IMG/VR virus record: IMGVR_UViG_2579778538_000002
Length of the DNA: 33,753 bases
Strand: one strand, 5' to 3'
Source: a virus
Lineage: Duplodnaviria; Heunggongvirae; Uroviricota; Caudoviricetes
Each line of letters starts with the position of its first letter. Position 1 is the first letter of the stretch. Both the position numbers and the translations under genes were made by a program. The notes beneath the pieces are model-generated. The model did not search any database, had not been told where the DNA came from, and saw only the letters and a list, made by a program, of their open reading frames with translations. This document shows positions 449-33,753 of this stretch, piece after piece.

Positions 449-1027
449 TCAACTGCTCCCGTGGTTATAACTGCCATCATGGATGGCGGTATTGTTATAG
501 CGAATGGCCACAGACTGATACTCCAGGCTGGCCAGATGGCAGCGGGCCGGTGCAAATGCAGCCAGCGTCTGACGCAGCATCGCGGCCTGATCGTTAGTAA
601 TGGGCTGTTTCAGAATAACGCGATAAACTGCCCAGGCGGCTGCATCTCCATGAACAAACAGTCCGTTATAGCTGCGATTGCCGTCGTAACTGAGACGACC
701 TGTGCCTTCAATCAGATCCACTTCACCAAAGCCAAAACGGCGGATAACTTCCCGGATTGACCACGGCGTCCCTTTATACCGGTGCAGTTCGATGGCTGCT
801 TTTATAAGCATGCGGCGAACATCGTCCGATTCCGCCAGCTCCCAGCCATCGCCAGACAGTGAGAACTGCTCGCCCAGCCATGGCAGCGCGGAACTGTCGA
901 CGATATCGACGAGAAAGACCATCAGTACGCTCAGGTCGATGTTATCCAGCCGTCCTGCCAGTCTTCCCAGCGTCCTGAGACTGATATCACCCTCAAGCGG
1001 TGGCGGGAGTTGTAATGGCTCAGTCAT
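449..1027 (-). CDS. baseplate/tail protein, P2 gpI-like (Mu gp48-like)
   Basis: 192 aa ORF immediately after the gpJ-like gene with overlapping stop/start; size and position match P2 gpI / Mu gp48. Confidence 0.65.
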   Translation of the reverse strand: MTEPLQLPPPLEGDISLRTLGRLAGRLDNIDLSVLMVFLVDIVDSSALPWLGEQFSLSGDGWELAESDDVRRMLIKAAIELHRYKGTPWSIREVIRRFGFGEVDLIEGTGRLSYDGNRSYNGLFVHGDAAAWAVYRVILKQPITNDQAAMLRQTLAAFAPARCHLASLEYQSVAIRYNNTAIHDGSYNHGSS

Positions 1028-2123
1028 CAGACACTCCAGTCATGTTAAGAGTGATTGCCGTACAGTTTGCCCATTCGTTTTCTGCCACCACCCGCAGTGC
1101 CGGTGTCACCAGTTCAACCTGGTACACCCCGGAAACGGACAATGCACTGATAATCTGGCTGGGGACAATATCGCGCCCCAGCGTGGCGGCACGTGATGCC
1201 ACCCAGTTCTGTATGGCGCTGTTAGCGGCATCTTTTACAGACCTGGCATCCTGATCACGATAGATCGTAATCCTGGCTTCAATGGTGTAATCCACCTTCA
1301 CTGGTGTTTTAGCCCGCACTGTATCAGTGAGTGGCCTGACTTTCTCATCAGAGCAGAAACTCTCTACCAGCGTGAGAACACCGCCGTCCGGCAGACCGGT
1401 ACTGAGCAGCGGATACAGATCTACGGTCCCGGGAACCGGGGAAAGCACAGCAACATCGACAATGTTGGGATGGGCCTGCATGGCATGAAAGCGGTATGCG
1501 CCACGGCTTCCGGCATTGGTGAATGACTCCGGGGCCAGCCTGATACGCTCCCGGAGCCTGTCATCGTCTTCCTGTTCTGAACCGCCGGAACTGGCCATCA
1601 GATTGCTCACCAGCAGGTTAACGTTATCAATCTCATCGAGTAACTGACTGACCTGCGCAGGTTGCCAGCCGTTACCAGCGGTACCGGGTTCGGTACAGGT
1701 GGCCGTGACATTGACCAGCAGCAATCCGGCCTTCAGTACCACATCTGTATCGGTGGCAAAAATAACGCTGTCGGAAGCGCTGACGCGGGTGCCTGCCGGG
1801 ATCAGCACATCAATGGCCAGTGCCTCATCTACGGAGAACTGGAGCGTGGTGGTGGCAGGCTGCGCGGCAAGACGGTATACACCGACCAGTTCACCGAGGT
1901 AATCAATCATCGGCTCACGGGCAAAGGCGACCAGATTCTGCTTTGCTGCCTCCTGTACCGCAACCCTGACCAGCATTTCGCGATAGGCCCACAGATCAAT
2001 CAGCAGACGTTCTGCCTGTGCCGGGTACAGCGTTTTGCCGGTATCCGCTTCATACTTCGCAATCATTTCTGCCGTGATTTTGTCGGCATCGCGTTCAATA
2101 AAATCGGGTTCTGTCAGCGCCAT
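1020..2123 (-). CDS. baseplate J-like protein (P2 gpJ / Mu gp47-like)
   Basis: 367 aa; position after the gpW-like gene; translationally coupled (overlaps neighbours by 8-10 nt). Confidence 0.75.
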   Translation of the reverse strand: MALTEPDFIERDADKITAEMIAKYEADTGKTLYPAQAERLLIDLWAYREMLVRVAVQEAAKQNLVAFAREPMIDYLGELVGVYRLAAQPATTTLQFSVDEALAIDVLIPAGTRVSASDSVIFATDTDVVLKAGLLLVNVTATCTEPGTAGNGWQPAQVSQLLDEIDNVNLLVSNLMASSGGSEQEDDDRLRERIRLAPESFTNAGSRGAYRFHAMQAHPNIVDVAVLSPVPGTVDLYPLLSTGLPDGGVLTLVESFCSDEKVRPLTDTVRAKTPVKVDYTIEARITIYRDQDARSVKDAANSAIQNWVASRAATLGRDIVPSQIISALSVSGVYQVELVTPALRVVAENEWANCTAITLNMTGVSDD

Positions 2124-2461
2124 AGCAGCTCCTGAGTCCGGGTCTGTCCGTCTGAGCCTTTCCAGCTCACCCGGAGCGTAAGATGTTCGCCGTCGACGGC
2201 GGGTTTAACTGACATAAGCTGGCAGCGGGGCTCCCAGCGCCGGATGGCATCGACGGATTCGCGCACCACATGCGGAATGGCCCGGTCTACAGGCCAGTCG
2301 ATATAAAGATGCAGATTGCTGCCGAACTCCGGGCGATGCGGGTCGCTGCCGCGGGGAGTCCGCAGGATAATTTGAATCGCCTGCCGGATATCATCCAGCC
2401 CCCGGACAATTTCGCCGGGAGCCTGCAGGGCTGGTTGCCAGAATACTGAGGTTGTTTTCAT
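2114..2461 (-). CDS. baseplate protein, GPW/gp25 family (Mu gp46-like)
   Basis: 115 aa, typical size for gpW/gp25, sits between gpV-like and gpJ-like genes. Confidence 0.7.
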   Translation of the reverse strand: MKTTSVFWQPALQAPGEIVRGLDDIRQAIQIILRTPRGSDPHRPEFGSNLHLYIDWPVDRAIPHVVRESVDAIRRWEPRCQLMSVKPAVDGEHLTLRVSWKGSDGQTRTQELLWR

Positions 2462-2515
2462 GGGGGCAGTATTGCCCCCGTGCGGGAACGCTGATATTAA
2501 AGGCGTTTAAAAAGC

Positions 2516-3112
2516 TCAGTGGGAGTGGTGGCTGGAGTTTTCGCCATCAGACAACATACTGCCCGTGGCATGGACATTCCCTTTAATCTCGATATTGCCA
2601 TGGATGGTCGCGGTAACACCTTCACCACCAGAACCCGCCATGCCTCCTTCGTAAATCAGCTTACCCCTGACACGCAGATCTCCGGTAAGTTCGGTTTCCG
2701 GTGCGTCAATCGTGGCTTTCTGTGTTTTCAATACCACATCAGCACCACACTCAATGACAATATGCTCAATGCCGCCCCGGATGATCAGAGTGTGCGTCTT
2801 CCGGTTGTAGCTGTACTCTGCACCATCAGCAAACCGGGTTCCCCGGATATTTTTGTCACTGAACGGTGGTTTATCGACGTCTGAATACACCGCGCCCAGA
2901 ATAACACCATCCTCGCCGTTGGCATCGAGCAGCACCTCAACCTGCTCCCCCACGTCAGGGAGCCAGTAATCTTTGTTATCCTGGGTATTGCGCTGCAGCA
3001 CGTTAAGCCAGTTTGTGCGCAGGTTATCGCATTCAGGCAGACGAACGCGGGCCTGAACCCTGTCGGCATCAACGGCACTGACCGTACCGACCTGACGAGT
3101 GACACCAGTCAT
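2516..3112 (-). CDS. baseplate spike/assembly protein V (P2 gpV / Mu gp45-like)
   Basis: 198 aa; N-terminal OB-fold-like region followed by a Gly-rich C-terminus (GGMAGSGGEG), typical of gpV spikes; follows the gpD-like hub gene. Confidence 0.7.
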   Translation of the reverse strand: MTGVTRQVGTVSAVDADRVQARVRLPECDNLRTNWLNVLQRNTQDNKDYWLPDVGEQVEVLLDANGEDGVILGAVYSDVDKPPFSDKNIRGTRFADGAEYSYNRKTHTLIIRGGIEHIVIECGADVVLKTQKATIDAPETELTGDLRVRGKLIYEGGMAGSGGEGVTATIHGNIEIKGNVHATGSMLSDGENSSHHSH

Positions 3113-4263
3113 TTTTTCTTCTCCTTAATCACCGTCGATGTACTGCCATCCGGGTGATAAACCGTGAGTTTCTGAGTTTTTTGTTTTTTCCCTCTTGTGA
3201 CTGGCCCCCGTGCCACTTCCAGCTCTGTGGTGTAGCCGCTGTTACGGTCAAACGCATGGCGGGCAGTGGTTATGAGCCATGGCCCGGATAACTGCCCAAA
3301 ACTCACCAGTTCAATTTTGTTGCCTGCTGTCAGTTGAGGTGTTCCCGTCAGCGTCAGGGAGCCGTTCTGCTGGTATTCGTTATGTCTGGCCAGTGCTGAA
3401 TCCGCTTTAATCCGGGCACTGTCCGGGTCGCTGACGCGGCTGTTAACTTTAAGTGAGTCAGCGCTGGTAACCTTACCACCTTTGAGCTTTTTGTCGCTTT
3501 CACGGGTACCACCATCAGCTTCGTAGACGATCAGTTTTTTACTGCTGCTTTTCTGGTGTTTTACCTTTGCAGATTTATAGACCCGGTTGATGGTGTCACG
3601 CAGGGAAAAGCGGGCCACATCCTGCGGTTTTAACTGCCTGACCGGCTCCTGACTGCGCAGTGTGGCCAGATGAGAAAAAATCAGCTGGTCACTGACCACT
3701 TTCACTGCATAACCATACTCGCTGGCCAGCCGGCGCAGAAAACCCACGTCGGTTTCAGCATACTGGGTCACCCGGTCGATTCTGATGGACTCAATGCTGC
3801 CCACCAGTTTCAGCCGGTGCTTTCTGGCAATCCGCCCCGCAACAGCTGCCAGCGTGGTGTTCTCAAAACCACGACTGGTTTTAGTCCGCAGGGCACTGTT
3901 AACCGAGGTGGCCACCCCACGGATAGAAACAACGGAAGCGGGCGAACTCACTTCGATCTCGTCTATAGAGAACGTACCGCAGGACAGCAGCTTCTCGCCC
4001 TGATAGCCCATTTTCAGCGTCAGCGTGTCACCCTTGCCCGGATACCATTTATCCAGCCAGCGGCCATCGGTGTCGTCCAGCTCCACCTCAATGGTATCGG
4101 ACTCATTTTTGATGTTATCGCTCCAGGTCACACGGGTGACATAAGGCGCGATATCAGAGGTGATGTTTTTCTGCAGATACCACAGAGTGAACACCGGTGT
4201 CAGCACATCGCTGACGCCGGTTAACGCTGATGTGACTTGCGCAGTGCTGTTTATCTCAGCCAT
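3109..4263 (-). CDS. baseplate hub / late control D-like protein (P2 gpD, Mu gp44-like)
   Basis: 384 aa, size and position as P2 gpD (tape measure - U - X - D order). Confidence 0.7.
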   Translation of the reverse strand: MAEINSTAQVTSALTGVSDVLTPVFTLWYLQKNITSDIAPYVTRVTWSDNIKNESDTIEVELDDTDGRWLDKWYPGKGDTLTLKMGYQGEKLLSCGTFSIDEIEVSSPASVVSIRGVATSVNSALRTKTSRGFENTTLAAVAGRIARKHRLKLVGSIESIRIDRVTQYAETDVGFLRRLASEYGYAVKVVSDQLIFSHLATLRSQEPVRQLKPQDVARFSLRDTINRVYKSAKVKHQKSSSKKLIVYEADGGTRESDKKLKGGKVTSADSLKVNSRVSDPDSARIKADSALARHNEYQQNGSLTLTGTPQLTAGNKIELVSFGQLSGPWLITTARHAFDRNSGYTTELEVARGPVTRGKKQKTQKLTVYHPDGSTSTVIKEKKK

Positions 4264-4466
4264 GGGGCAATATCCTCTTCTGTACGGGCTTCTTCAGCCT
4301 CAATCACCGGGATCAGTAACAACAGCCCGGAGGGCAGCACCGGCGTGATGGCCACGTGCGGATTGGCGGCAATAATCCGGGGATAGCCCAGCGGGTCACC
4401 GTAGTACTGCCATGCCAGCGAATCCCAGCGCTCTCCGTCACGGGTAACATGTTCAAGAAACATCAC
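4251..4466 (-). CDS. tail protein X-like (LysM-like small tail protein)
   Basis: 71 aa, overlaps both neighbours; size and position as P2 gpX-family tail protein. Confidence 0.55.
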   Translation of the reverse strand: MMFLEHVTRDGERWDSLAWQYYGDPLGYPRIIAANPHVAITPVLPSGLLLLIPVIEAEEARTEEDIAPWLR

Positions 4467-5347
4467 ACACTCCTCGTCAGTATTCTGGCGGCCATTGCAC
4501 TTAATCCCGGAGACATGCGGTTGAATGCTGTGCCGACGGCGTTAAGCTGCCCGGAAACGGTATCCAGAGCACCTGCAATATTTCTTTTGTCCACACCACT
4601 CAGCGCAGACTGTGCCTGCTGTACATACGTGGCTGCTTCGCTGGCTGTTCTGGCCAGACTGATGGCATCGGGCATGGATTCAGAGAGTGCGTTAAACGCC
4701 GGAACACTTTTCCCCAGAGCCCCGGAGATATTACCCAGTCCGCTCATCAGCCCCGGCACACGGGTCAGTGCGACAACGGGGTTATCCTTCATTTTCTGTG
4801 TCACCCGAACGGCGCTGATAGTGGTCTGGAGTACAGACTGCGCCTGTTTCGCATAGTTGACGCCGTTGCGGATGAACTGCGCCACCCCTGAAGGTGAAGG
4901 TATGGCACCGGAGACCGCCCCGACACCCGGGAGCTTCGTGCGTATTGCCGGTGGTTGCAGAGGATTTTTCGGGTCACCGGTGTATTCCCGGAGAGACACG
5001 GTGGCACTGACAGCCAGCACGTTGCCGGTACTGTCAGTCTGCTCGCTGGTTGCAGTCACATCGGTGATCACGAACCAGCCGCGATAGTCACCGTTGCCGA
5101 AGACCAGCGCCAGTGCCTGATGGGCTTTCATGGCTGTTCGCAGTCTCGCCAGCTCCACATCGGGTACACAATAATGCTGATGGAAAACCAGAGTTATCTG
5201 GATTTCGTCCAGCCTGTCGCCGACGAACTGCAGACCAGGCTTACCCCCGATGCGGGCATGCTCCGCATAATCGACGCCGAACGTGGCCTCGAAGCCGTCC
5301 CAGTAGGTAATCAGCTCAAACTCAATATCACCCAGTACGGCAAACAT
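4463..5347 (-). CDS. tail formation protein, P2 gpU-like N-terminus (Mu gp43/N region)
   Basis: 294 aa; N-terminus MFAVLGDIEFELITYW...GKPGLQFVGDRLDEIQITL resembles the gpU signature (..LG.F.F......FQFLG...I.L.G); starts 1 nt inside the tape measure stop. Confidence 0.55.
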   Translation of the reverse strand: MFAVLGDIEFELITYWDGFEATFGVDYAEHARIGGKPGLQFVGDRLDEIQITLVFHQHYCVPDVELARLRTAMKAHQALALVFGNGDYRGWFVITDVTATSEQTDSTGNVLAVSATVSLREYTGDPKNPLQPPAIRTKLPGVGAVSGAIPSPSGVAQFIRNGVNYAKQAQSVLQTTISAVRVTQKMKDNPVVALTRVPGLMSGLGNISGALGKSVPAFNALSESMPDAISLARTASEAATYVQQAQSALSGVDKRNIAGALDTVSGQLNAVGTAFNRMSPGLSAMAARILTRSV

Positions 5348-8298
5348 CAGCGGTACTCCTTACGTTGTTTCTGAGCCAGCAGACGCTCCAGCATTTTTTC
5401 CAGCTCATGCAGACTCATATTCAGGGCACCAGTCAGTCCTGCAGGCGCTGTGGTTTCCCTGCCATTGAGGAAAAACTGAGGATTAAAGCTGACCTGGATA
5501 CCACCAGACGTTCCACCGCCGGTTGCAGCTGCACCACGGCCTGAATATCCGGCAGCCAGGATTTCAGGCGAGGGGATACGGGGAACATCCGGTGTCATCT
5601 CATTTGCCAGACGTTGCCCTGGTAAAATCGATGCCCGGGTGGAGAGCGGAATAGCGGGCATGGAAGACAAACTATTGATTACGGCTCCGATCGCATTTTT
5701 AGCAGACGACATAAACCCATTGATATCGGGCAACGGCATACTGAAGCGAACACCTGAAGTGTTATCCCGTATTTCTGGCCCCTGAATGCTCACGGGCATT
5801 CTGGGGAGCAGTTCACTGGCCATTCGCTGCCCGGCCAGAGCTGCAAGCGGAGTGGTCCGCTGCAGGCCAATGGCGGCCCCCTGCGCGATATTGTCACCAA
5901 AGCCCATAAACACGCGGCTCGGCGAATGAATGCCCAGCTTTTCGCTGAACCAGCCACTGATGCTGTCGCCCATTCCGGTTACACTGGATTTGAGCGACTC
6001 CCATTTGTTTTTGATACCGTTAATCAGACCATCGACAAGATGGCCACCGAAGTCGGTAAACTTTGCCGGCAGATCAACACCAAGATATTTCAGCGCAGCT
6101 GCAAAGGCTTTATAGAGCAGACCTGCCGGCGACCAGTTAATCAGCAGCTTACCAGTTCCCGCGATACCGCCGTTAAAGGCTTCCTGAATGTCAGCCCAGC
6201 ATTGTTTAAACCAGCTACTGATGCTGTCACCCATTCCGGTTACACTGGATTTGAGCGACCCCCATTTGTTTTTGATACCGTTAATCAAACCGTCGATAAG
6301 ATGGCCACCGAAGTCGGTGAACTTTGCCGGCAGAGTAACGCCGAAATATTTCAGCGCAGCCGCAAAGGCTTTATAGAGCAGGCCTGCCGGCGACCAGTTA
6401 ATCAGCAGCTTACCAGTTCCCGCGATACCGCCGTTAAAGGCTTCCTGAATGTCAGCCCAGCGCTGTTTAAACCAGCCACTGACTGCCCCCCAGTTGCGGT
6501 AGATAAGGTAAGCTGCTGCCGCGACAGCGGTGATAACGAGACCGATGGGATTCATCATCAGCGCTCGCCCAATCCAGAGAACGGCACGTGCAGCGCTCAT
6601 AAAACCGCGAACGAGGCTGCCCGCCAGAACTTTGCTGAGTTTCAGTCCTCCGCTGGTCAGTCGGCTGAATCCAGTGACAAGCCAGCGTAATTTGCCACCT
6701 TCTCCGAGTGCGGTAGTCAGTCGATGCCAGTTGGTCCGGAGTAAAACAGCAGTTTTCCAGACGTTCACAAAGGGGGAAATAAGGAGATTCAGCCCCAGTT
6801 TGAGACCAACAGTCGCTATCTTAATCGCAAGGAGCGCACTGATGAGCTTAAAAGCCCCACTGACAAATTGCGGGTGAGTCGCCACCCAGTGTTTTGTCCC
6901 CTGAATGAGTGGGAGCAAGTCCTGAGTCAGAGAAATAAAAGATGGAGCTAATTGATCGCCCAGCGTAATTGCCAGATCGCGACTGCTGACCATAAGTGTT
7001 TTAGTGGCTTCAAGGGGAGATTTCAGCCGCTGATCATAAGCACTGGCAAGCAAATCGTTATCCGCAGCCCTGAGAGCACCGGCACGGATCTCTCGATATC
7101 TGTCCATGTTGGCCAGCATCGGGCGGATAAATGCCATGACCTGCATATCCGCGAACATATCGCCCAGACCAAAGTTTTTCGCCAGAGCCTGAAGTGCCTC
7201 ATCTCTTGCCGTATCATTCTTTATTTTCATGGCTGATTTGAAGCCGGCCAGCGCTTCGGGGCTTTTGGCATTGAGGTAACGTTCTATAACACTCAACATC
7301 CCTTCAATCGGAGAGATCCCCGCAGCTTTATAACTCGCAATAGATCCCTGCAAATCAATACCCAGATCAGCAAACTGTTTCTGAGTATCGCGGGCAAAAA
7401 TTTTGGTAAGAAAGTTTTTAAAATTATTGGCTGCTTCGTCGGTGGAACCTGCACCGATTTTTGCTATCTGGAGACTGGCCCCGATTTCAGCAACAGCCTC
7501 TTTTCCACTGGCAATACCCGCCATCATTGGGGCCAGGGACTGCATCCACTTGACCTGATCCGGGATTTCAAATGACCCCTGGTCACCGGCATAAGCCATA
7601 ATATTCTGAACGGCACCAAAATCTCTGGCCGCGCCTTTCAGGGAGTTTTGCCAGACTGCGGCCACTTTTGCCCAGTCCTGAGCAGACGTGCGTGTTGCCG
7701 TTGCCGCGCGGGCAATATCCGGCATCAGAAAACCGATATCTGACACATTATCAATATTGTCGCTGATGAGTGAACCCATCGCCTCCTGCAGCTCATCCTG
7801 ATACTGATTGTATTTAAGCGCCCAGCCTTTTATCTGTCCGGCAAGTGCATCCCGCGTTTTATTGTCATATTTTGCGGTGATCGACATATCAATCATTTTG
7901 TCCTGAAAAGACATGGACTGCTGAACGGCAGGGGAAACCGTATGATAAACAGTCTGTGCCATGCCATACGCTTCAATCCCCTGACCATACAGCGCCATGC
8001 GGTTAGCTTTCAGCGCATCACTGGTAGCGGATGCCGCTGACAGACGGCGCTGCTGGCGCTCAATTTGCTCCATGGTGCGGCTTACCCGCAGCAGCTCGCT
8101 GTTGAGATGCTGCATCCGGGAAGAACCCAGTTGACCATAACGTTCTGTTGCACGGGTTAAAGCGTTCTGACGTTCCTGCAGGCGGCGTGAGGTATCGCTC
8201 AGGGAATCAAGCGCACGGCGGGTACCGCTCATTGCAGAACGGAATGTGCTGCCAATCATCCCGCCGATAACAACGCCGACTGAAAACTGTCCCGACAT
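5347..8298 (-). CDS. tail tape measure protein
   Basis: 983 aa, largest tail gene, directly downstream of the frameshifted chaperone pair; helical N-terminal third, hydrophobic central segment, internal tandem repeat; GGAGG Shine-Dalgarno about 10 nt upstream of ATG. Confidence 0.85.
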   Translation of the reverse strand: MSGQFSVGVVIGGMIGSTFRSAMSGTRRALDSLSDTSRRLQERQNALTRATERYGQLGSSRMQHLNSELLRVSRTMEQIERQQRRLSAASATSDALKANRMALYGQGIEAYGMAQTVYHTVSPAVQQSMSFQDKMIDMSITAKYDNKTRDALAGQIKGWALKYNQYQDELQEAMGSLISDNIDNVSDIGFLMPDIARAATATRTSAQDWAKVAAVWQNSLKGAARDFGAVQNIMAYAGDQGSFEIPDQVKWMQSLAPMMAGIASGKEAVAEIGASLQIAKIGAGSTDEAANNFKNFLTKIFARDTQKQFADLGIDLQGSIASYKAAGISPIEGMLSVIERYLNAKSPEALAGFKSAMKIKNDTARDEALQALAKNFGLGDMFADMQVMAFIRPMLANMDRYREIRAGALRAADNDLLASAYDQRLKSPLEATKTLMVSSRDLAITLGDQLAPSFISLTQDLLPLIQGTKHWVATHPQFVSGAFKLISALLAIKIATVGLKLGLNLLISPFVNVWKTAVLLRTNWHRLTTALGEGGKLRWLVTGFSRLTSGGLKLSKVLAGSLVRGFMSAARAVLWIGRALMMNPIGLVITAVAAAAYLIYRNWGAVSGWFKQRWADIQEAFNGGIAGTGKLLINWSPAGLLYKAFAAALKYFGVTLPAKFTDFGGHLIDGLINGIKNKWGSLKSSVTGMGDSISSWFKQCWADIQEAFNGGIAGTGKLLINWSPAGLLYKAFAAALKYLGVDLPAKFTDFGGHLVDGLINGIKNKWESLKSSVTGMGDSISGWFSEKLGIHSPSRVFMGFGDNIAQGAAIGLQRTTPLAALAGQRMASELLPRMPVSIQGPEIRDNTSGVRFSMPLPDINGFMSSAKNAIGAVINSLSSMPAIPLSTRASILPGQRLANEMTPDVPRIPSPEILAAGYSGRGAAATGGGTSGGIQVSFNPQFFLNGRETTAPAGLTGALNMSLHELEKMLERLLAQKQRKEYR
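5950..6471. repeat. in-frame tandem duplication, 2 x 261 bp, inside the tape measure gene
   Basis: Two adjacent 261-nt units starting near 5950 and 6211, about 94% identical (about 16 mismatches); a third unit begins at 6472 and diverges after about 10 nt. Encodes a duplicated 87-aa block (WFKQRWADIQEAFNGGIAGTGKLLINWSPAGLLYKAFAAALKY...). Confidence 0.9.
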
Positions 8299-8373
8299 AG
8301 TGGTTAACCTCCGGGGAAGGTGAAAAGACGTGAGGGGATAACGCAGAACAGCCGCTACTGGCGGCTGTCTGTA

Positions 8374-8791: not shown

Positions 8792-8849
8792 GATTGTGCT
8801 CCTGTGTAAGTTCAGGGCAGTATGTCGGGAGAAGCGCGTGACGGATATT

Positions 8850-8881: not shown

Positions 8882-8888
8882 TGTGATG

Positions 8889-25104: not shown

Positions 25105-25151
25105 CTAACACATATAAGGCAAACATCATTGCATCAACAAAGGAGACAACG

Positions 25152-25340: not shown

Positions 25341-25392
25341 ATATTTTGAGTCTTTGTAAAAGGTTATCACATATCGCAAAAGAGGTATGCAG

Positions 25393-25701
25393 ATGAGTAA
25401 GACGAATGTTTCAAGCTCCGGCAGTCGCATCCTCCGGGTACTCAAAGCGCTGCGCGGTCATGCCCTGAACGGTATTTCTAACGGTGAACTGGCGACAGCA
25501 CTGCACGAGTCACCGGCAAACATCAACCGGGCACTCAACACCCTCATTGAAGAAGGGCTGGCTCTGAAACTGGAGAACGGACGTTTTGCACCGGGCATCC
25601 AGTTACTGCAGATCGCCATGGCCCACAGTAACGAGATGGCACGTGCACAGGATCGTATTAACGAAATTAACCAACGTGTCATTTCAGGTAGTCGTTTGTA
25701 A
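25393..25701 (+). CDS. winged-helix DNA-binding protein (IclR/MarR-like N-terminal HTH)
   Basis: ILRVLKALRGHALNGISNGELATALHESPANINRALNTLIEEGL resembles a winged-helix HTH; start set at ATG 25393 (Shine-Dalgarno AGAGG). Confidence 0.5.
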   Translation: MSKTNVSSSGSRILRVLKALRGHALNGISNGELATALHESPANINRALNTLIEEGLALKLENGRFAPGIQLLQIAMAHSNEMARAQDRINEINQRVISGSRL

Positions 25702-25711
25702 GGAGTAATCA

Positions 25712-26632: not shown

Positions 26633-26949
26633 TGAATACGAATAACACACAAAATACCCTGATGGACAGCCCGGAGGCACTGGGGCACGCACTGTGTAAT
26701 CTGCTGCCGGAGATGGTGCAGGGTTTCCGCGTGGTGACCCCTTCCGGTGAAATCTGCGTACCCGCACAGGAGACGCACCCGTTTGTACTGACGATGGAGG
26801 TGATGCTGATGCAGCAGATAAGACGTCTGCAGAATCAGTCAGCATTACGCCCGGTAGTTGCACCGCAACCGGTAAATACCGTGGTGAAAACCTGCGATGG
26901 CGAAACACTGTGCGACCTCGCCAGAAAAATTGCCGCCAGAATCGGATAA
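26632..26949 (+). CDS. hypothetical early protein (105 aa)
   Basis: ATGA overlap with upstream gene; no recognisable motifs. Confidence 0.45.
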   Translation: MNTNNTQNTLMDSPEALGHALCNLLPEMVQGFRVVTPSGEICVPAQETHPFVLTMEVMLMQQIRRLQNQSALRPVVAPQPVNTVVKTCDGETLCDLARKIAARIG

Positions 26950-26964
26950 CAGGGAAGACAAGCT

Positions 26965-28734
26965 ATGACCCCGGCACTGACTGAAAAACTGGTTGAAACA
27001 GCCCGCGCGGCACGTGACGCGGGGCATGGTAAACGCGGTGCAATATACGACGCTGCCTGTGCTGAACTTGGCATGTCCCGCGCCACTCTGCTGCGCAGGC
27101 TGAAGGAGGTATCTGTGACTGATAAACGCAAAAAACGCGCCGATGCCGGGCGCAGCGCCCTGACCCGCGACGAAGCCGCGCTGATATCTGCCACACTGCG
27201 TGAGGCCACCCGCAAGAACGGTAAGCGTCTCTATTCCATCGCAGATGCAGTGGAAACCCTGCGGGCTAACGGCTTTATCACCGCAGGCAGAACAGATGAA
27301 ACCACCAGTGAGTTTTTCCCGTTGTCTGAAGATGCCATCAGCCGTGCTCTGCGTAACTATGGCCTGCACCCGGAACAACTGGATGCCCCTGCACCACATA
27401 CCGAAGTGGCCAGTCTGCATCCCAATCATGTCTGGCAGATTGACGCCTCACTCTGCACGCTTTACTACCTGAGCAATGGACATAAAGGGCTGCAGGTGAT
27501 GGACAGCGCGAAGTTCTACAAGAACAAGCCCGCTAACCTTGCCCGTATCGCCAGTGACCGCGTGTGGAGTTACGAGATTACCGACCATGCCAGCGGCTGG
27601 ATTTACGTTGAGTATGTGACGGGCGCGGAATCAGGTGAGAACCTGTGTTCTGTGCTTATCAACGCCATGCAGGAGCGTGGCGGCGCAGACGTGCTGCACG
27701 GCGTGCCGAAAATACTCTATCTCGACCCCGGCTCGGCAAACACCGCGGGTATGACGAAAAACATGTGCCGCTCACTGGGCATCGACCTGATAGCGCACAA
27801 GCCGCATAACGCCCGCGCCACCGGACAGGTGGAAAAGGCGCGTGACATTATCGAACGCAAGCTGGAGCCGGGTCTGAAGTTCCGGCCGGTTCACAGTCTG
27901 GAAGAACTCAACGCGCTGGCCGCGAAATGGCGCAGCCACTTTAACGCCACGGCTGTTCACAGCCGCCACGGTAAAACCCGCACGGATATCTGGCTGAAGA
28001 TTACTGCTGAGCAGCTGAAAAAAGCGCCTTCCGTTGAGGTATGTCGTGAACTGGCTGTGGCGGCACCAGAACTCCGCAAAGTCACGCCAAAACTTCGTGT
28101 CTCGTTCCGGGGCACTGAATTTGACGTATCAACGGTACCGGGCGTACTGGTTGGTGAAAAACTGATGATTACCCGTAACCCATGGCGCAGCGATGTGGCA
28201 CAGGTGGTTCTGACCGGTGAGGACGGCCACGAGACGTTCTTCCTGGTCGAAGAGGTCAGAAAGAACGAGTTTGGCTTTGCTGAAGGCGCGGCGGTATTTG
28301 GCGAAAGTTACAAAGCCCTGCCGGAAACCCCGGCACAGATGGCGGCAAAAGAAACCGAAGCGCTGGTTACCGGTACAGACAACGCCGCAGATGCAGCCGC
28401 CGCACGCAAGGCGAAGGCGCTGCCGTTCGGCGGGCGGCTTGACCCGTATAAACATATCGACGACACCACACTTCCGGCCTATATGCCGAAGCGTGGTCAG
28501 GCCTCTGACGTACGCGGGCCGCGCACTGAACAACGTCCCATGACTCATGTGGAGGCCGCGAAAGCCCTGCGCGATAAGTTCAGCGCCGACGGCCTTACCT
28601 GGACGCCGGAACATTACCGCCAGTTAACGGCACAGTACCCGGACGGCGTACCGGAAGCCGCACTGGATGAAGTCATGGCCACGCTGACCACACCGGCCCG
28701 CAGCAGTGTTATCAGCATTGTTAACGGCAACTGA
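26965..28734 (+). CDS. DDE transposase (Mu A-type, short B3/D3112-like form)
   Basis: 589 aa; N-terminal HTH region, then DDE core with candidate catalytic residues in HVWQIDAS, YLDPGSAN and TGQVEKAR; followed by the AAA+ B-type gene as in transposable phages. Confidence 0.85.
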   Translation: MTPALTEKLVETARAARDAGHGKRGAIYDAACAELGMSRATLLRRLKEVSVTDKRKKRADAGRSALTRDEAALISATLREATRKNGKRLYSIADAVETLRANGFITAGRTDETTSEFFPLSEDAISRALRNYGLHPEQLDAPAPHTEVASLHPNHVWQIDASLCTLYYLSNGHKGLQVMDSAKFYKNKPANLARIASDRVWSYEITDHASGWIYVEYVTGAESGENLCSVLINAMQERGGADVLHGVPKILYLDPGSANTAGMTKNMCRSLGIDLIAHKPHNARATGQVEKARDIIERKLEPGLKFRPVHSLEELNALAAKWRSHFNATAVHSRHGKTRTDIWLKITAEQLKKAPSVEVCRELAVAAPELRKVTPKLRVSFRGTEFDVSTVPGVLVGEKLMITRNPWRSDVAQVVLTGEDGHETFFLVEEVRKNEFGFAEGAAVFGESYKALPETPAQMAAKETEALVTGTDNAADAAAARKAKALPFGGRLDPYKHIDDTTLPAYMPKRGQASDVRGPRTEQRPMTHVEAAKALRDKFSADGLTWTPEHYRQLTAQYPDGVPEAALDEVMATLTTPARSSVISIVNGN

Positions 28735-28744
28735 GGAGGGAAAC

Positions 28745-29911
28745 ATGCTGGTACTGAAGCAGCAACTGAAAGAGGCCCGTATTCCACAGGCGGTGGTGGC
28801 GAGAGCTGTCGATGTTTCTGAGGCCACGCTGGCCCAGATTGTGAATCATAACGCGTGGCCCCGCACCAGCCCCGGAGAAGTGCGCCGGCGTCTTGCGTCC
28901 TGGCTGGAAAGTCAGGGGATTGATACAACGAAGAGTTTTGATGCTGTACAGGGCGCGGCCACGCCCCGTACAGCGGGTACCACAGATAAAACGAGCCTCA
29001 GTGAGGAAGAGAATATGTTACTCAAAAAACAGGTGTTATTTCCAGCAACCAAAAAAGCGTTTGGTCTTTTCCGTGACCCGTTCGCCGACGAAGCCATGCA
29101 GGGTTCTGATGATGTGTTCACCACCCCGGACATTCGCTACGTGCGTGAGGCGCTGTACCAGACAGCCCGTCATGGTGGGTTTATGGCCGTCATCGGTGAG
29201 TCCGGTGCGGGTAAATCCACGCTGCGCCGCGACCTGACTGAACGTATCAACCGCGAGAATGCGCCGGTAATTGTTATCGAGCCATACATCATCGCTATGG
29301 AAGACAACGATGTGAAAGGGAAAACCCTGAAGGCAGCAGCTATTGCCGAAGCCATTATCAGTACCATCGCACCACTGGAAAGCATCAGACGCAGTCAGGA
29401 CGCCCGTTTTCGCCAGTTGCATCGCGTCCTGAAAGACAGCAGCCAGGCGGGGTTCAGCCACGTTCTGGTGATTGAGGAGGCCCACAGTCTGCCCATTCCG
29501 ACACTGAAACACCTCAAACGCTTTTTTGAGCTGGAGTCCGGTTTCAAAAAACTGCTGTCCATCGTGCTGATTGGCCAGCCGGAACTGGCGACAAAACTGT
29601 CTGAACGCAATATGGAAGTCCGTGAAGTCGTTCAGCGCTGTGAGGTGGTCGAACTTCTGCCTCTGGACAATAACCTTGAAGAATTTCTGACGTTCAAACT
29701 GCAACGGGCCGGTAAACAGCTGACGGACATTATGGACGCCGGTGCAGTGGATGCCATACGTGCCCGCCTGAGCAATCCGGGAAGTCACCGTAAAAATATG
29801 GTCAGCCTGCTGTATCCGCTGGCCGTCAGTAACCTGGTAATAGCCGCCATGAATCTGGCCGCTGAAATCGGGGTTCCACAGGTCAACGCTGACGTTGTCA
29901 AAGGGGTTTAA
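28745..29911 (+). CDS. DNA transposition ATPase (Mu B-like AAA+ protein)
   Basis: Walker A GESGAGKST, Walker B-like HVLVIEEAH; start set at ATG 28745 after GAGGAGGG; immediately downstream of the transposase. Confidence 0.8.
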   Translation: MLVLKQQLKEARIPQAVVARAVDVSEATLAQIVNHNAWPRTSPGEVRRRLASWLESQGIDTTKSFDAVQGAATPRTAGTTDKTSLSEEENMLLKKQVLFPATKKAFGLFRDPFADEAMQGSDDVFTTPDIRYVREALYQTARHGGFMAVIGESGAGKSTLRRDLTERINRENAPVIVIEPYIIAMEDNDVKGKTLKAAAIAEAIISTIAPLESIRRSQDARFRQLHRVLKDSSQAGFSHVLVIEEAHSLPIPTLKHLKRFFELESGFKKLLSIVLIGQPELATKLSERNMEVREVVQRCEVVELLPLDNNLEEFLTFKLQRAGKQLTDIMDAGAVDAIRARLSNPGSHRKNMVSLLYPLAVSNLVIAAMNLAAEIGVPQVNADVVKGV

Positions 29912-29913
29912 TA

Positions 29914-30183
29914 ATGAAATCCACCACAGGTATCAACCAGCAAATCAGCAAAGTGCAGTCAGCCATTATGGCGCTTAAGGCGACGAACACGGATGTACAA
30001 AGCATCACCATCAGGGGTAACAAACCTGTCATCCGCGTTTCCCGGAGTGCGCATTGCATGCGCATGCTTGAGCAGGGAAAGGCCTGTTATCTGTATACCG
30101 GACATGACCACAGGGGATATTTCCGTCAGGGCGTTTTCGAACTGCACGGCTGTCGCGTCGTGTGGCCGGAATCTTTGTGGTAA
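29914..30183 (+). CDS. hypothetical early protein (89 aa)
   Basis: Tightly packed after B; no recognisable motifs. Confidence 0.45.
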   Translation: MKSTTGINQQISKVQSAIMALKATNTDVQSITIRGNKPVIRVSRSAHCMRMLEQGKACYLYTGHDHRGYFRQGVFELHGCRVVWPESLW

Positions 30184-30210
30184 TCAGCACAACTGGAGAA
30201 ATCATAAAAA

Positions 30211-30741
30211 ATGGCAAAAAGTACAAAAGGTGCAAAACGTATCAAGGCCGCAGCAGCACTCTGGGTGCCGGGGACACGTGAAGAGGTCATTGAGGGAATC
30301 AGACTACTCGGTGACGCACAACGTGAACTGGTCAGGGCTGAAACAGAAATGAATGACGCCATTGGCGATATCACCGCACGTTATGCCCCGCTCACCGAGA
30401 GCCTGAAAAAACGCATGGCCGAACTGCAGTCCGGTATTCAGACATGGTGTGAGGCACACCGTGATGAACTGACCGGCAACGGGAAGGTGAAGTTCGCTAA
30501 CCTCACCACCGGCGAGGTGCAGTGGCGAAACCGTCCGCCATCAGTCAGTATCCGTGGGGCGGATAATGTTATTGAATTACTGAGACGTCTGGGGCTTGAG
30601 CGCTTTATTCGTGTAAAAGAGGAAATAAATAAAGACGCTATCCTGAATGAAAAAGAGGCCGTGAAAAATATTCCCGGTATTTCCATTAAAAGCGACATTG
30701 AGGATTTTTCAATAATTCCTTTTGAGCAGGATGTGCAGTAA
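30211..30741 (+). CDS. gam: host-nuclease inhibitor protein Gam (Mu Gam-like, Ku-like DNA end binding)
   Basis: 176 aa; near-colinear with phage Mu Gam as I recall it (MAK..KRIK.AAA...RLETEMNDAI...WCEA.RDELT..GKVK.ANL.TG.V.WR.RPPSVSIRG...ERLGL.RFIR.K.EINK.AIL...IEDFSIIPFEQ). Confidence 0.9.
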   Translation: MAKSTKGAKRIKAAAALWVPGTREEVIEGIRLLGDAQRELVRAETEMNDAIGDITARYAPLTESLKKRMAELQSGIQTWCEAHRDELTGNGKVKFANLTTGEVQWRNRPPSVSIRGADNVIELLRRLGLERFIRVKEEINKDAILNEKEAVKNIPGISIKSDIEDFSIIPFEQDVQ

Positions 30742-30838
30742 ACACACCACGTTAATTATTTAATAAAAACATTTTCTTTTTTATTCCGACGTCAGCGCCG
30801 CGGGCTTCTGCACGCCGGAAACAGAGGAGAATTAAATC

Positions 30839-31033
30839 ATGATATTTAAATGTATTCAGTGCGAGAGGGATATAACAGCCCTGCGTTTTCACAGCGCCAT
30901 CGCCGTGATGTCCGGTAAATACCACATCCCTGCGGTACGCGTCACCCTGGTCTGCCCGTACTGCAGCCAGCATTTTTCGGCAGACGTGCCCGTCATGGAA
31001 TTCTCCCGCCCTGACAGGGAGGACTCGCAATGA
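30839..31033 (+). CDS. small zinc-ribbon protein (CxxC...CxxC)
   Basis: 64 aa with CIQC and CPYC pairs about 30 residues apart; Shine-Dalgarno GAGGAG upstream. Confidence 0.45.
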   Translation: MIFKCIQCERDITALRFHSAIAVMSGKYHIPAVRVTLVCPYCSQHFSADVPVMEFSRPDREDSQ

Positions 31034-31302
31034 TTACCCCACAGGAAGCACGACAGCGCACCCGAACCCTTGTTGAACACTATGTCAACGAGTGTGAATG
31101 CCGCGACCTCACCGATGTGAAGCACGTCCTGACGGCGCTAATCAGCATGGCCACACAGGCCATTGTGGCGACCAACGGAAAGGAGGCTGCCCTGCAGGTA
31201 CTGATGAACACACTCACCCACACGGCAGAGCATGAGGTGCCGTACCGGATGGAAACCACTGCAGAAGGCGGCCTGCACATCACCGTCAGCCGGAAGCACT
31301 GA
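31030..31302 (+). CDS. hypothetical early protein (90 aa)
   Basis: ATGA overlap with upstream gene; contains CEC motif; no family assigned. Confidence 0.4.
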   Translation: MITPQEARQRTRTLVEHYVNECECRDLTDVKHVLTALISMATQAIVATNGKEAALQVLMNTLTHTAEHEVPYRMETTAEGGLHITVSRKH

Positions 31303-31311
31303 GGGCGCGGC

Positions 31312-31608
31312 ATGACACGAAACACCGAACTCACCCGCACCGCCCTCTACCGTCTGGCCCTGCAGCGTTTCGGGCCGGACGCACAGGCCCTGAAACTGGC
31401 AGAAGAGGCCGCTGAACTGGCGGCCAGTGCCGCCCGCAACCTGAACGGACAGGGCAGCGAAAGTGACCTCGCGGCAGAGCTGGCAGACGTGGAAATCATG
31501 ACAGAGCAACTGCGCCTTCAGGGGATGGACCGGCTGATTGACTTCCACAAACAGAAAAAACTGGAACGTCTGGCTGCACGACTGGGCGTGATTTACACGA
31601 ACGAGTAA
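31312..31608 (+). CDS. MazG-like nucleotide pyrophosphohydrolase (small all-alpha NTP-PPase)
   Basis: 98 aa with paired acidic motifs LAEEAAELAASA and AAELADVEIM, resembling the EExxE...ExxD metal-binding motifs of MazG-type proteins; assignment from motif only. Confidence 0.5.
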   Translation: MTRNTELTRTALYRLALQRFGPDAQALKLAEEAAELAASAARNLNGQGSESDLAAELADVEIMTEQLRLQGMDRLIDFHKQKKLERLAARLGVIYTNE

Positions 31609-31622
31609 CCGGGAGGCATTCA

Positions 31623-31838
31623 ATGGCTGACATACTCAGGGAAATCACCGCATGGACACTGATTCTTACTGGCCTGGCGACATGCCTCAGTGCGGGGGCA
31701 GCCCTGGCTGCCCTGCTGATGCACATAACAACACAGTGGTTATGGGAAAAGCTTAAAGCAGCATACAGCCTGAAAGAGCTGTCCGACGCTGTCCGGGCAT
31801 GGAAACGGCAGAAAAATACCGGAGATACAGAACAATGA
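31623..31838 (+). CDS. small membrane protein (one TMD)
   Basis: 71 aa; hydrophobic segment WTLILTGLATCLSAGAALAALLM. Confidence 0.4.
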   Translation: MADILREITAWTLILTGLATCLSAGAALAALLMHITTQWLWEKLKAAYSLKELSDAVRAWKRQKNTGDTEQ

Positions 31839-32518
31839 CAGACCAGAATAAACACATTGAGAAACTGAAAAAGTTGCTGGCGCTGGCCGCATCCGGCAAC
31901 CCGCACGAGGCCGCTCTGGCACTGCGCCGAGCCCGTAAACTGATGGATGTTCACGGCATCACACATTCCGACATTGCTATGAGTGATATTGATGAAACCA
32001 TCAGTCACTACTGGCCGACAGGCAGTCTCCGTCCACCGCGCTACATGCTGGGCCTGATGAACATCATCCGCGAGGTATTTGGTGTTAACTCCATCATTCA
32101 CCCCGGCACGCATCCGTCTGTGGGGTTCTACGGCAACCGGGAACGTGCGGCACTGGCTGCATACACCTGGGAAGTGCTGGCCCGTCAGCTGAAAAAGGCG
32201 CGTCAGCAGTATATCAGTGCACAGAACAAAAGAATAAAAACCGCCACCCGCACCAGCCGTGGAGACCAGTTTGCCGAAGGCTGGGTGCTGGCCGTTATCA
32301 GTGAAATACAGTCCTTTGCCCTGACCGATGATGAGCGTGAACTGATGCAGCAGTGGCTGGAACATAAATACCCGCAGACGCAAACCACCAGGGCGCGTAA
32401 ACCGGGAAGAAGCCGCAATGGCGACGCCTCGCGCTATGCGGGGTTTCGTGAAGGGCAGAACGTCAGACTGCACCGCCCGGTCAGTGGGCAGGAACAACAG
32501 AAACTGGAGGCCAGATGA
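31835..32518 (+). CDS. DUF2786-like early protein
   Basis: Start set at ATG 31835 (GGAGA upstream); N-terminus HIEKLKKLLALAASGNPHEAALALRRARKLMDVHGI matches the DUF2786 pattern common in prophage early regions (from memory). Confidence 0.5.
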   Translation: MTDQNKHIEKLKKLLALAASGNPHEAALALRRARKLMDVHGITHSDIAMSDIDETISHYWPTGSLRPPRYMLGLMNIIREVFGVNSIIHPGTHPSVGFYGNRERAALAAYTWEVLARQLKKARQQYISAQNKRIKTATRTSRGDQFAEGWVLAVISEIQSFALTDDERELMQQWLEHKYPQTQTTRARKPGRSRNGDASRYAGFREGQNVRLHRPVSGQEQQKLEAR

Positions 32519-32745
32519 TTACGCTATCAGGTAAAAGCCGGAAATTAAAAGCCTGCCGAATATCTGCCAGATACCTTTTTGCCCGCGCCTTTTTTAAGAA
32601 CGTCAGGCCGGGGATCACAATTGGTGTTATTGCCGGACGCGAACAGGTTGAAAAATACATGTCAGGTGCATGGTGGAATAACGACCCTGTCATTGCTGCC
32701 CGTAATATTCATATCGAATGGGGAGGTATTCAGAATGACTACTGA
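32515..32745 (+). CDS. hypothetical early protein (76 aa)
   Basis: ATGA overlap with upstream gene; basic; no family assigned. Confidence 0.35.
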   Translation: MITLSGKSRKLKACRISARYLFARAFFKNVRPGITIGVIAGREQVEKYMSGAWWNNDPVIAARNIHIEWGGIQNDY

Positions 32746-32941
32746 AACCATTGTCTGTTTTCTTTTCTGGTATATGTACGCAGGATCATGCAGCGCAAGA
32801 CTTCATCGTTCCCTGGGCTATGGCAGGCACTACGACACCGCGCATTACATCCTGTACATGACCGCCGTCATGTTGTTCTGGCCAGTCACCCTGCCAGCTG
32901 CAACCGACATTGTTGCCGACAGACTGAAAAAAAGGAGATGA
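32735..32941 (+). CDS. small hydrophobic protein (two predicted TMDs)
   Basis: Internal ATG of track ORF 32579-32941 preceded by GGGAGG; hydrophobic segments VCFLFWYMYAG and YILYMTAVMLFWPVTL. Confidence 0.35.
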   Translation: MTTETIVCFLFWYMYAGSCSARLHRSLGYGRHYDTAHYILYMTAVMLFWPVTLPAATDIVADRLKKRR

Positions 32942-32942
32942 T

Positions 32943-33392
32943 ATGCAGAAAAAACGCCTGATACAGCTTATCCATATTGCCCGTAATGAACTGGGTATGG
33001 ATGAAGACACCTACCGCCAGATGTTACAGGGGCTGACCGGTAAAGCCTCAACCAAAGGAATGGATACCACACAACTAAACTGCGTGCTGGAATCCATGAA
33101 AAAGAAAGGCTTTCGCGTTAAACCAGCCAGAAAAGCCAGCTCCGGTTTACCGCTTGATAACCATCCGCAGTCCAGGAAAATTCGTGCGCTATGGCTTGAA
33201 ATGGCTGCTGCCGGCATTGTTCGTGACCGTTCAGAAAATGCATTAGCGAGGTGGATCAAGCGGGAAACGGGCATCAGCGCCCTGCGCTGGCTCAGTACTG
33301 AACAGGCAAGCAGTGTTATTGAGAAACTGAAGAAGTGGCAGCGCAGAGCTGCGGGAGTCAAACATGAGCGACCTGAATCAGTTTCGAAGTAA
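32943..33392 (+). CDS. gemA: GemA/gp16-like early regulatory protein
   Basis: 149 aa directly upstream of mor as in Mu; N-terminus RLIQLIHIARNELGMDEDTYRQMLQGLTGKAS fits the Mu gp16/GemA family pattern (from memory). Confidence 0.55.
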   Translation: MQKKRLIQLIHIARNELGMDEDTYRQMLQGLTGKASTKGMDTTQLNCVLESMKKKGFRVKPARKASSGLPLDNHPQSRKIRALWLEMAAAGIVRDRSENALARWIKRETGISALRWLSTEQASSVIEKLKKWQRRAAGVKHERPESVSK

Positions 33393-33753
33393 GGGGCCGG
33401 AACTCCTGGTGGAACTGGCACAGCATACCTCTGAGACCGTTCGCGAGATTATTGATATTGAGCCCGAAGTTGCCGACCAGATTGGTCAGGCCGTCGCGAA
33501 CCGAATGATGCAGGTCTGGGGCGGGCAAAACGTTTATTTCCCGATGGGCATGGTATGGAAGGTCAGTCAGCGCGACCGGGAAATCTTCAGGGAGTTTAAC
33601 GGACGCAACCACCACGAACTGGCCCGCAAATTTGGTGTTTCGCTTCAGTGGGTCTACAGCGTGGTTAAGCGGGTAAGAAAAGAAGAACTGGATCGGATGC
33701 AGGGCAAGCTATTTGCTGATGAACCCGATGCAGATACGGAGAAAAAAGAGTAA
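33364..33753 (+). CDS. mor: middle operon regulator Mor (Mor/C-family transcription activator)
   Basis: 129 aa (same length as Mu Mor); C-terminal HTH region FNGRNHHELARKFGVSLQWVYSVVKRVR parallels Mu Mor FNGRN..EL....GV....VY...RR.R; overlaps gemA-like gene by 29 nt. Confidence 0.85.
   Translation: MSDLNQFRSKGPELLVELAQHTSETVREIIDIEPEVADQIGQAVANRMMQVWGGQNVYFPMGMVWKVSQRDREIFREFNGRNHHELARKFGVSLQWVYSVVKRVRKEELDRMQGKLFADEPDADTEKKE

Follow-up and report, generated by a model that had tools for sequence, protein, structure and literature searches.

The stretch of DNA analyzed here (33,753 nucleotides [nt], IMG/VR record IMGVR_UViG_2579778538_000002, referred to throughout as the window) covers the greater part of a transposable prophage of Escherichia coli, a BcepMu-like myovirus of Mu style, in which the early genes lie on the plus strand and the late genes on the minus strand, diverging from a central region of mixed orientation. 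We consider it likely that this divergent arrangement is governed by a two-tier cascade in which a Mor-family activator, encoded by the last gene of the early block, acts on a set of boxes preceding the late gene blocks on the opposite strand. The layout itself, to which an earlier note based on the letters of the window had drawn attention, is real and was correctly interpreted; it has already been published, and the sequence has already been deposited. Taken alone it changes nothing, being the textbook organization for BcepMu- and B3-type transposable phages, and the map of candidate late promoters described below is a modest, testable addition to what is known. No description of the boxes was found in the searchable literature; some of this ground may have been covered earlier, in the original paper on BcepMu (Summer et al. 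2004).

Divergent clusters and a single activator gene

An open reading frame (ORF) map, with translation of 50 chosen genes of the window, bore out the claim of the earlier note that an early block (plus strand, 25152-33753) and a late block (minus strand, 22177-449) diverge from a central region. The late block comprises 28 minus-strand genes arranged head to tail without a break, from the ATG of the holin gene at 22177 to the stop codon of the tail protein I gene at 449, and the early block comprises 17 plus-strand genes, equally unbroken, from a 62-amino-acid (aa) Ner-like helix-turn-helix (HTH) gene at 25152 to the stop codon of the Mor-family gene at 33753; between them, at 22308-25058, lie five genes of mixed orientation with a GC content of 0.48-0.49, against 0.55-0.60 elsewhere. 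The assignment of this layout to the BcepMu type was also correct. In BLASTP comparisons, 35 of the 50 genes matched genes of BcepMu (NC_005882) in the same order and the same relative orientation: every late gene from tail protein I to the holin, with the exception of one 93-aa ORF, matched BcepMu gp51 to gp21 in order at 31-76% identity, and the early matches followed the order gp16, gp12, gp10, gp09, gp08, gp02, and gp01. Genes 1-16 of the BcepMu record share a strand, the first of them being Mor, at the end of the genome, and genes 17 (the repressor) to 52 occupy the other; this organization of divergent clusters was explicitly described by Lavigne et al. (2009; PMC2771037), and Pseudomonas phage B3 (AF232233) shares it. 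The synteny comparison with Mu and BcepMu-like phages that had been proposed as a check thus returned a gene order as in BcepMu and a strand arrangement unlike that of Mu (NC_000929), in which early, middle, and late genes are co-directional.

The Mor-family gene is the last gene of both the early block and the prophage, its stop codon lying 163 bp from the right end, and it is directly preceded by a GemA ORF.

33364-33753, plus strand: Mor/C-family transcription activator, 129 aa (Pfam Mor PF08765, E 1.3e-43; 54% identical to BcepMu gp01)
32943-33392, plus strand: GemA homologue (Pfam GemA, E 8e-41; 44% identity with BcepMu gp02, 36% with Mu GemA)

A C-like activator had been expected downstream of mor, and this candidate had to be rejected, there or elsewhere: phmmer searches with Mu Mor, Mu C, BcepMu gp01, B3 ORF1, and the Mor protein of the window as queries recovered one gene, mor itself, and no second Mor/C ORF among the six-frame ORFs of the window or of the full 37-kb prophage, even at E values up to 10. 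Since the element holds one Mor/C ORF, the simplest model is that its product directly activates four late transcription units 11-31 kb away. The earlier proposal of a late activator working in trans is in keeping with this sole gene and with candidate boxes on the opposite strand, but the distance of 11-19 kb given for it covers only the boxes at 22244 and 14777.

Candidate late promoters and their conservation

A pattern search of the window for TAA-N6-TTAAWATC returned four exact matches, all on the minus strand, all intergenic, and all located before blocks of late genes. When one mismatch was allowed, five matches were obtained where 0.30 were expected, and none of 100 shuffled sequences reached five. 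In all four boxes a hexamer of the form xAxxCT starts exactly 36 nt after the TAA, and each box points to the downstream late genes from a distance of 48-72 nt from the start codon. The four candidate promoters, named here for the genes that follow them, are listed below; none of the sites is among the listed matches to two-hexamer, sigma-70-type promoters.

22228-22244, minus strand: candidate Plys, box TAACGCGCTTTAAAATC, -10 hexamer GATGCT at 22208-22203
14761-14777, minus strand: candidate PI, box TAAAGCAGATTAAAATC, -10 hexamer CAAACT at 14741-14736
8844-8860, minus strand: candidate Ptail, box TAATCTCCTTTAATATC, -10 hexamer CATACT at 8824-8819
2493-2509, minus strand: candidate Pbase, box TAAACGCCTTTAATATC, -10 hexamer AATACT at 2473-2468

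Terminator-like hairpins occur just upstream of Ptail (8882-8867) and upstream of PI (14937-14920 and 14854-14841), and the stretch described as a late operon probably consists of four transcription units.

The arrangement resembles that of the Mu middle promoter Pm. According to PMC4390567 and PMC4287176, the Mor site of Pm is a 16-bp dyad in which 5-bp inverted repeats flank a G/C-rich spacer of 6 bp; it extends from -51 to -36 and is centered at -43.5, and the Mor-activated promoter is described as having a -10 element and no -35 element. The Pm region of Mu reads AGTAA-AGCCGG-TTAAT, followed by TATCCT at the same 36-nt offset as in the window. At the level of sequence, the sites of the window have the dyad, the G/C-rich spacer, and the -10 hexamer, and they lack a -35 hexamer, as is characteristic of Mor/C-dependent promoters; the element also encodes an activator of the corresponding family.

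Conservation of the boxes was assessed in IMG/VR relatives, which were fetched by means of the protein encoded downstream of each box.

Candidate PI (protease): box in 74/78 loci; xAxxxT at +36 in 43/46 unique sequences; protease identity down to 45%
Candidate Plys (holin): box in 78/78 loci; xAxxxT at +36 in 39/40 unique sequences
Candidate Ptail (tail chaperone): box in 79/79 loci; xAxxxT at +36 in 33/34 unique sequences
Candidate Pbase (gpW): box in 77/77 loci; xAxxxT at +36 in 22/23 unique sequences

The background for the PI box is 0.003 matches per 80 nt. Overall, the hexamer was in place in 137 of the 143 unique sequences, though the spacer between box and hexamer varies freely. Klebsiella phage KP12 keeps all four boxes, and in BcepMu the holin and protease genes are each preceded, at the orthologous position, by TAAAGCCGATTAAAAGA. 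At Pbase, AATACT ends 6 nt before the gpW ATG, a placement kept in nearly all 77 relatives and in BcepMu; the predicted transcription start coincides with the gpW ATG (2461), and a leaderless gpW mRNA is therefore predicted.

A possible fifth Mor-type box, TAAACCACATTAAC, is located on the plus strand at 23635-23648, before the gene for a Dam-type methyltransferase in the central region, with CATCAT at +36 (23671-23676); KP12 has a box at the same place. The dam leader of about 140 nt is better conserved with KP12 than are its surroundings and contains a 12-bp stem at 23685-23716 (fold z = -5.07). The methylase gene may be late activated and leader controlled, in analogy to the Pmom promoter and com of Mu. 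A 64-aa CxxC...CxxC protein encoded at 30839-31033 was considered as a Com-like regulator for dam and was rejected, as it is not significantly similar to Mu Com.

Two further features of these intergenic regions were recorded. The Plys box is nearly palindromic, and its plus-strand image has CAGGAT at +36, directed toward the divergent P-loop gene at 22308-23036; an activator site at this position might serve both directions. After the G gene, a hairpin at 14841-14870 has the loop TTTATAAAGGCTTTAC, which is common to BcepMu (18727-18760) despite low nucleotide similarity; the strong gyrase site of Mu is located in the G-I intergenic region, the same place.

Regulatory model and alternative explanations

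The control of the early block would reside at its upstream edge, where the repressor gene and the Ner-like gene are separated by a 93-bp spacer.

24702-25058, minus strand: repressor, HTH_3/cI-like, 118 aa (Pfam HTH_3, E 4.6e-15, and Phage_CI_repr; PHROG repressor families)
25076-25104, plus strand: candidate early promoter TTGATA-17-AATAAT (best sigma-70-type match in 21800-33753, 10/12 positions)
25085-25102: perfect 18-bp palindrome TGCTCATAATTATGAGCA, overlapping the candidate early promoter
25152-25340, plus strand: Ner-like HTH gene (46% identical to BcepMu gp16)

The match at 25076-25104 is probably the early promoter and the TGCTCATAATTATGAGCA palindrome probably its operator. A scan of the early region for terminators gave weak matches only, no more than were found in shuffled sequences, and because these matches are weak mor is most likely the last gene of the early transcript, as in Mu. 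In the model that we propose, the cI-like repressor would face an operator-overlapped sigma-70 early promoter (about 25076-25104), which would drive one long plus-strand operon encoding the Ner-like protein, the transposase, its AAA+ partner, Gam, a number of small proteins, GemA, and finally Mor. We infer that Mor would then bind a 16-bp dyad, yTTAA-N6-TTAAw, centered near -43, at four opposite-strand promoters devoid of a -35 element: Plys would serve the lysis and head genes, PI the protease and capsid genes through to the tail sheath gene, Ptail the tail chaperone and tape-measure genes, and Pbase the baseplate genes, and a fifth Mor box may precede the dam methylase gene. Such a cascade would have two tiers (early to late), compared with the three tiers of Mu (early to Mor to C to late). 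The wider proposition, that in BcepMu-like phages generally the single Mor/C activator encoded by the terminal gene directly switches on all late units by way of Pm-type boxes, with no C step, and that a leaderless gpW message and dam as a fifth member of the regulon form part of this scheme, is one that we favor with some reserve.

Several observations weigh against the proposed model. Both the binding of Mor and the activity of the promoters are read from sequence alone, and the fit of the Mu Pm sequence to the published coordinates of the Mor site is our own assignment. For most of the relatives recovered at Plys, Ptail, and Pbase the flanking protein has 70-100% identity, and the conservation at these loci partly reflects recent common ancestry; two of the four BcepMu sites, those before gp41 and gp49, are degenerate. 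Phage B3 has the same layout and a Mor homologue and contains no match to TAA-N6-TTAA, so that the box is not universal for this layout, and a rule based on it was rejected for B3-like phages. The activator of the window resembles Mu C (53.9 bits over 79 aa) and Mu Mor (54.3 bits over 109 aa) equally well, and the label "Mor-type" rests on the sequence of the boxes. Finally, a Pbase start on the gpW ATG needs a leaderless mRNA, unless the site has another role.

This last point, together with the location of two boxes immediately after terminator-like hairpins, is what could be said for the boxes being some other conserved intergenic signal, such as binding sites for nucleoid proteins or for transposition or packaging factors, or parts of terminators. 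We regard this as very improbable: retention of xAxxxT at +36 in 137 of 143 sequences while the spacer varies is the signature of a promoter and not of a site that is bound by a protein only, and every box is directed at late genes that begin 48-72 nt downstream. A somewhat less remote alternative, although still an unlikely one, is that the boxes are late promoters bound by a regulator other than Mor, either the winged HTH (wHTH) protein encoded at 25393-25701, which resembles BcepMu gp12, or an unrecognized analogue of Mu C, in which case the three tiers of Mu would be kept. Conservation with BcepMu extends to the wHTH protein and to a number of small early proteins of unknown function, and the even similarity of the Mor-family protein to Mu Mor and Mu C is compatible with such a scheme, but the boxes fit the published Mor site of Pm in half-site, in the G/C-rich 6-bp spacer, and in distance to the -10 hexamer, whereas the half-site at the C-dependent late promoters of Mu is a different one, ATAACCCC, and the element has no second Mor/C ORF.

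There remains the question of whether the layout is an artifact, created by the joining of two prophage remnants in the window or by misassembly at 22200-25150. The lower GC content of the center (0.48-0.49) and the lack of BcepMu homologues among the central genes might be taken in this sense, but the probability is negligible given that 493 complete E. coli genomes and Escherichia phage PhiKM contain the junction without a break, that 6-bp duplications enclose the entire 37-kb element at each of two independent sites, that the flanking holin and gp16-like HTH genes are syntenic with those of BcepMu, and that BcepMu, B3, and KP12 have the same strand switch. The checks that the earlier note had named as capable of overturning its reading upheld the unity of the element: searches for tRNA genes and Rfam RNAs returned none in the window, and hence no attachment site of this kind, the central ORFs belong to phage protein families, and one pair of duplications encloses the 37-kb element. 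The switch, the ends, and the four or five predicted Mor-dependent promoters, as mapped here on the sequence, are direct targets for induction and transcription studies, and TAA-N6-TTAA followed by a -10 hexamer at +36 offers a simple rule for the annotation of late promoters in this phage group.

Relationship to BcepMu, B3, KP12, and Mu

The element has the attributes by which the BcepMu-like group is recognized, namely opposed gene clusters that meet at the lysogeny control genes, with Mor/GemA at the outer edge of the early one, an rve/ExeA-like transposition pair, TG...CA ends with repeated terminal motifs of the transposase-binding kind, insertion at many places in the chromosome, and a P2-like tail combined with a Mu-like head. 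Divergent early and late clusters with a terminal Mor gene are common to the group as a whole, which includes phiE255 and prophages of Haemophilus, Aggregatibacter, and Chromobacterium. With BcepMu in particular the element shares a Tn552-like rve transposase accompanied by an ExeA-like ATPase; a P2-like contractile tail joined to a Mu-like head module of terminase, portal, F, and G (with matches to gp39-gp51 and to the small terminase, large terminase [TerL], portal, F, and G proteins); a lysis cassette with an SLT endolysin; TG...CA termini with related repeats; and variable cargo at the strand switch. The BcepMu transposase was described as Tn552/IS1604-like, not MuA-like, and the tail cassette as P2-like (PMC2771037). 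BcepMu differs in that protein identity is only 31-76% and nucleotide similarity about 22% as coverage times identity (by blastn, 32% of the window at 68% identity), and megablast found no match between window positions 20000-33753 and BcepMu. The present element, unlike BcepMu, has a Mu-type Gam with no BcepMu match, a Dam methylase, and a different repressor and set of central genes; it is without the acyltransferase gp53 of BcepMu, and its part beyond the window includes, as in Mu, an invertible tail-fiber segment with a Gin/Cin-like invertase, a module that BcepMu does not have. Genera are demarcated at approximately 70% nucleotide identity across the genome in the style used by the ICTV. 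The element falls short of this value against BcepMu, despite the filing of PhiKM under Bcepmuvirus in GenBank, and judged by these values it is a family-level relative of BcepMu and not a close one.

Klebsiella phage KP12 and Escherichia phage Phi06_2974 B are nearer, at about 87% identity over half of the early and central region, and both of these phages, PhiKM, and the prophage located between aroA and ycaL (for example, in strain JJ1886) have the layout and all four promoter boxes as in the window. PhiKM and other copies retain a tail-fiber gene after the gene for tail protein I (gpI), whereas the window has an element of the insertion sequence (IS) family IS66 in place of the start of that gene. 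B3 resembles the element in its divergent layout, in having Mor and GemA at the genome end, in its transposase (56% identical), in a related terminal sequence, and in its possession of a Dam methylase; it differs in its siphovirus tail module, in the location of dam, with com, inside the late cluster, and in the lack of the TAA-N6-TTAA box.

The description of the early proteins as Mu-type was only partly sustained. It holds for Gam, whose near colinearity with Mu Gam was confirmed (61.5% identity over 169/174 aa), and for GemA and Mor (36 and 30% identical to their Mu counterparts, respectively), but not for the transposase and the B-like ATPase, which had no BLASTP similarity to MuA and MuB, respectively; by protein similarity, only Gam, GemA, and Mor among the early proteins are Mu-like. 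Beyond these three, Mu and the element have in common replicative-transposition biology, TG...CA ends, TerL (49% identical), F (47% identical), portal, and G homologues, an invertase with an invertible tail-fiber segment, corresponding positions of the Plys and PI promoters, and a Mor-type box with the spacing found at Mu Pm. Mu differs in the co-directional arrangement of its genes, in encoding both Mor and C where one activator is found here, in tail genes that are not P2-like, and in having mom and com rather than dam. The hallmarks of Muvirus (co-directional genes, MuA/MuB, Mor plus C, and a 5-bp duplication) are absent, and although its transposition biology and its predicted Mor-type late control are like those of Mu, the element does not belong to the Mu-type phages.

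Prophage ends and insertion sites

The ends were mapped outside the window in identical copies of the prophage, by comparison of the flanks in strain 4/1-1 with other genomes and at two further loci. As the earlier note had supposed, they lie beyond both edges of the window: the right end is 163 bp past its final base, which is the last base of the mor stop codon, and the left remainder of the prophage amounts to about 3.1-3.3 kb in 4/1-1, where the IS is absent. The element is 37,045 bp long in this strain, with termini of the form 5'-TG...CA-3' (5'-TGATGCGCCGCGCGATAAATGCAC... and ...TTATCTCAAGTCTAATCA-3'), and at each end there are two repeats of the GATAAATG type, spaced by about 23 bp and similar to the BcepMu ends; the ends align with those of both BcepMu and B3. 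Target duplications were of 6 bp at two insertion sites (CTCAGG inside irp2 and GAAGAA between aroA and ycaL) and not of 5 bp, as the earlier note had expected and as is the case for Mu. Further copies were located next to hybB and at other sites.

In the E. coli, BcepMu, and B3 phages, the tail-proximal terminus (TGAAGCGCGGCGCGATA...) is similar to the right end, or attR, of Mu (TGAAGCGGCGCACGAAAAACGCG), and there is no such likeness between the mor-proximal terminus and the left end of Mu; an inversion of the early block relative to Mu would be consistent with this. In strain MS20645 (CP082091, 1-3012) the right end abuts hybB and the left abuts zinc-ribbon genes and IS66, with no matching duplication, which suggests that this copy was rearranged after insertion.

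A stretch of the prophage beyond the left edge of the window (6302-9870 of the 4/1-1 locus) encodes a Gin/Cin-like serine recombinase and opposed tail-fiber and tail-fiber-assembly genes and is an invertible host-range module like the G segment of Mu. The window itself begins inside an IS element: positions 1-441, to the left of the stretch (449-33753) that the earlier note described, are the terminal part of an ISEc23-like element of the IS66 family, with a tnpA accessory gene on the minus strand, and are not phage DNA. The IS element directly abuts the stop codon of tail protein I, there is no tail-fiber gene in the window, and the copy from which the window was derived is probably tail-fiber defective. 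A junction between IS and gpI that is similar, not identical, was found in one complete genome only (AREA_494).

Central region and gene content

Relatives carry other genes and another repressor at the central spot yet keep the strand switch, and the center is a variable cargo and immunity spot. In addition to the repressor it encodes the following.

22308-23036, plus strand: P-loop protein, 242 aa, variable cargo
23012-23416, minus strand: 134-aa protein, variable cargo
23415-23630, plus strand: 71-aa protein, variable cargo
within 23635-24585, plus strand: Dam-type N6-adenine methyltransferase, likely start codon 23821 (Pfam MethyltransfD12, E 9e-29; PADLOC MTase_II)

The three cargo ORFs match PHROG families 3787, 2266, and 4490, all of unknown function; Pfam gave a weak P-loop hint only for the 242-aa protein, and PADLOC returned nothing but subthreshold noise for the central cargo, with the exception of the methyltransferase.

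The remaining early genes, all on the plus strand, are as follows; the rve domain match of the transposase in Pfam is only marginal.

25393-25701: wHTH regulator (34% identical to BcepMu gp12)
25712-26632: DUF3102 protein (39% identical to BcepMu gp10)
within 25152-26949, after the DUF3102 gene: 105-aa protein
26965-28734: DDE (rve) transposase (68% identical to BcepMu gp09; Pfam rve)
28745-29911: ExeA-like AAA+ transposition ATPase (59% identical to BcepMu gp08; Pfam AAA_22)
30211-30741: Gam host-nuclease inhibitor (Pfam Phage_Mu_Gam, E 1e-40)

The late genes, all on the minus strand, are given in order of increasing coordinates.

449-1027, 1020-2123, and 2114-2461: tail protein I, J, and W, baseplate (55-63% identical to BcepMu gp51, gp50, and gp49)
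2516-8791: V, D, X, U, tape measure (5347-8298), and tail assembly chaperone (8456-8791), P2-like tail (31-57% identical to BcepMu gp48-gp41)
within 8889-14705: tail tube, tail sheath, and head-completion genes (block 42-76% identical to BcepMu gp40-gp32)
12622-13575 and 13590-14705: major capsid protein and protease/scaffold, respectively (part of the same 42-76% block)
within 14920-22177: Mu G and F homologues, portal, large and small terminase, and two small genes (32-67% identical to BcepMu gp31-gp21)
within 14920-22177: lysis cassette of Rz-like protein, SLT endolysin, and holin (21827-22177) (32-67% identical to BcepMu gp31-gp21)

Distribution and deposited relatives

Among the prophages of clinical E. 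coli this is a common one; JJ1886 is among its carriers, and genes such as irp2 and hybB serve as insertion sites. Window positions 20000-33753 were found in 646 of 5,426 complete E. coli genomes (about 12%), and in 493 of the 5,426 at least 80% of this part was carried as one piece. Positions 2000-33753 are 100% identical to the aroA-ycaL prophage of strain 4/1-1, and the same aroA-ycaL junction is present in E. coli strain JJ1886. Positions 20000-33753 are likewise 100% identical to PhiKM (PQ738613), a phage of uropathogenic E. coli that is assigned to Bcepmuvirus in GenBank; identity to PhiKM is 100% throughout the parts held in common. The PhiKM record is circularly permuted, the tail-fiber end being joined to the mor end, and it has a sequencing gap in the tape-measure gene. 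Between the two joined ends, at 20200-20740 of PQ738613, lies a minus-strand gene annotated as an Fe2+ ABC transporter permease, which is probably packaged host DNA or the product of an assembly join and not phage sequence.

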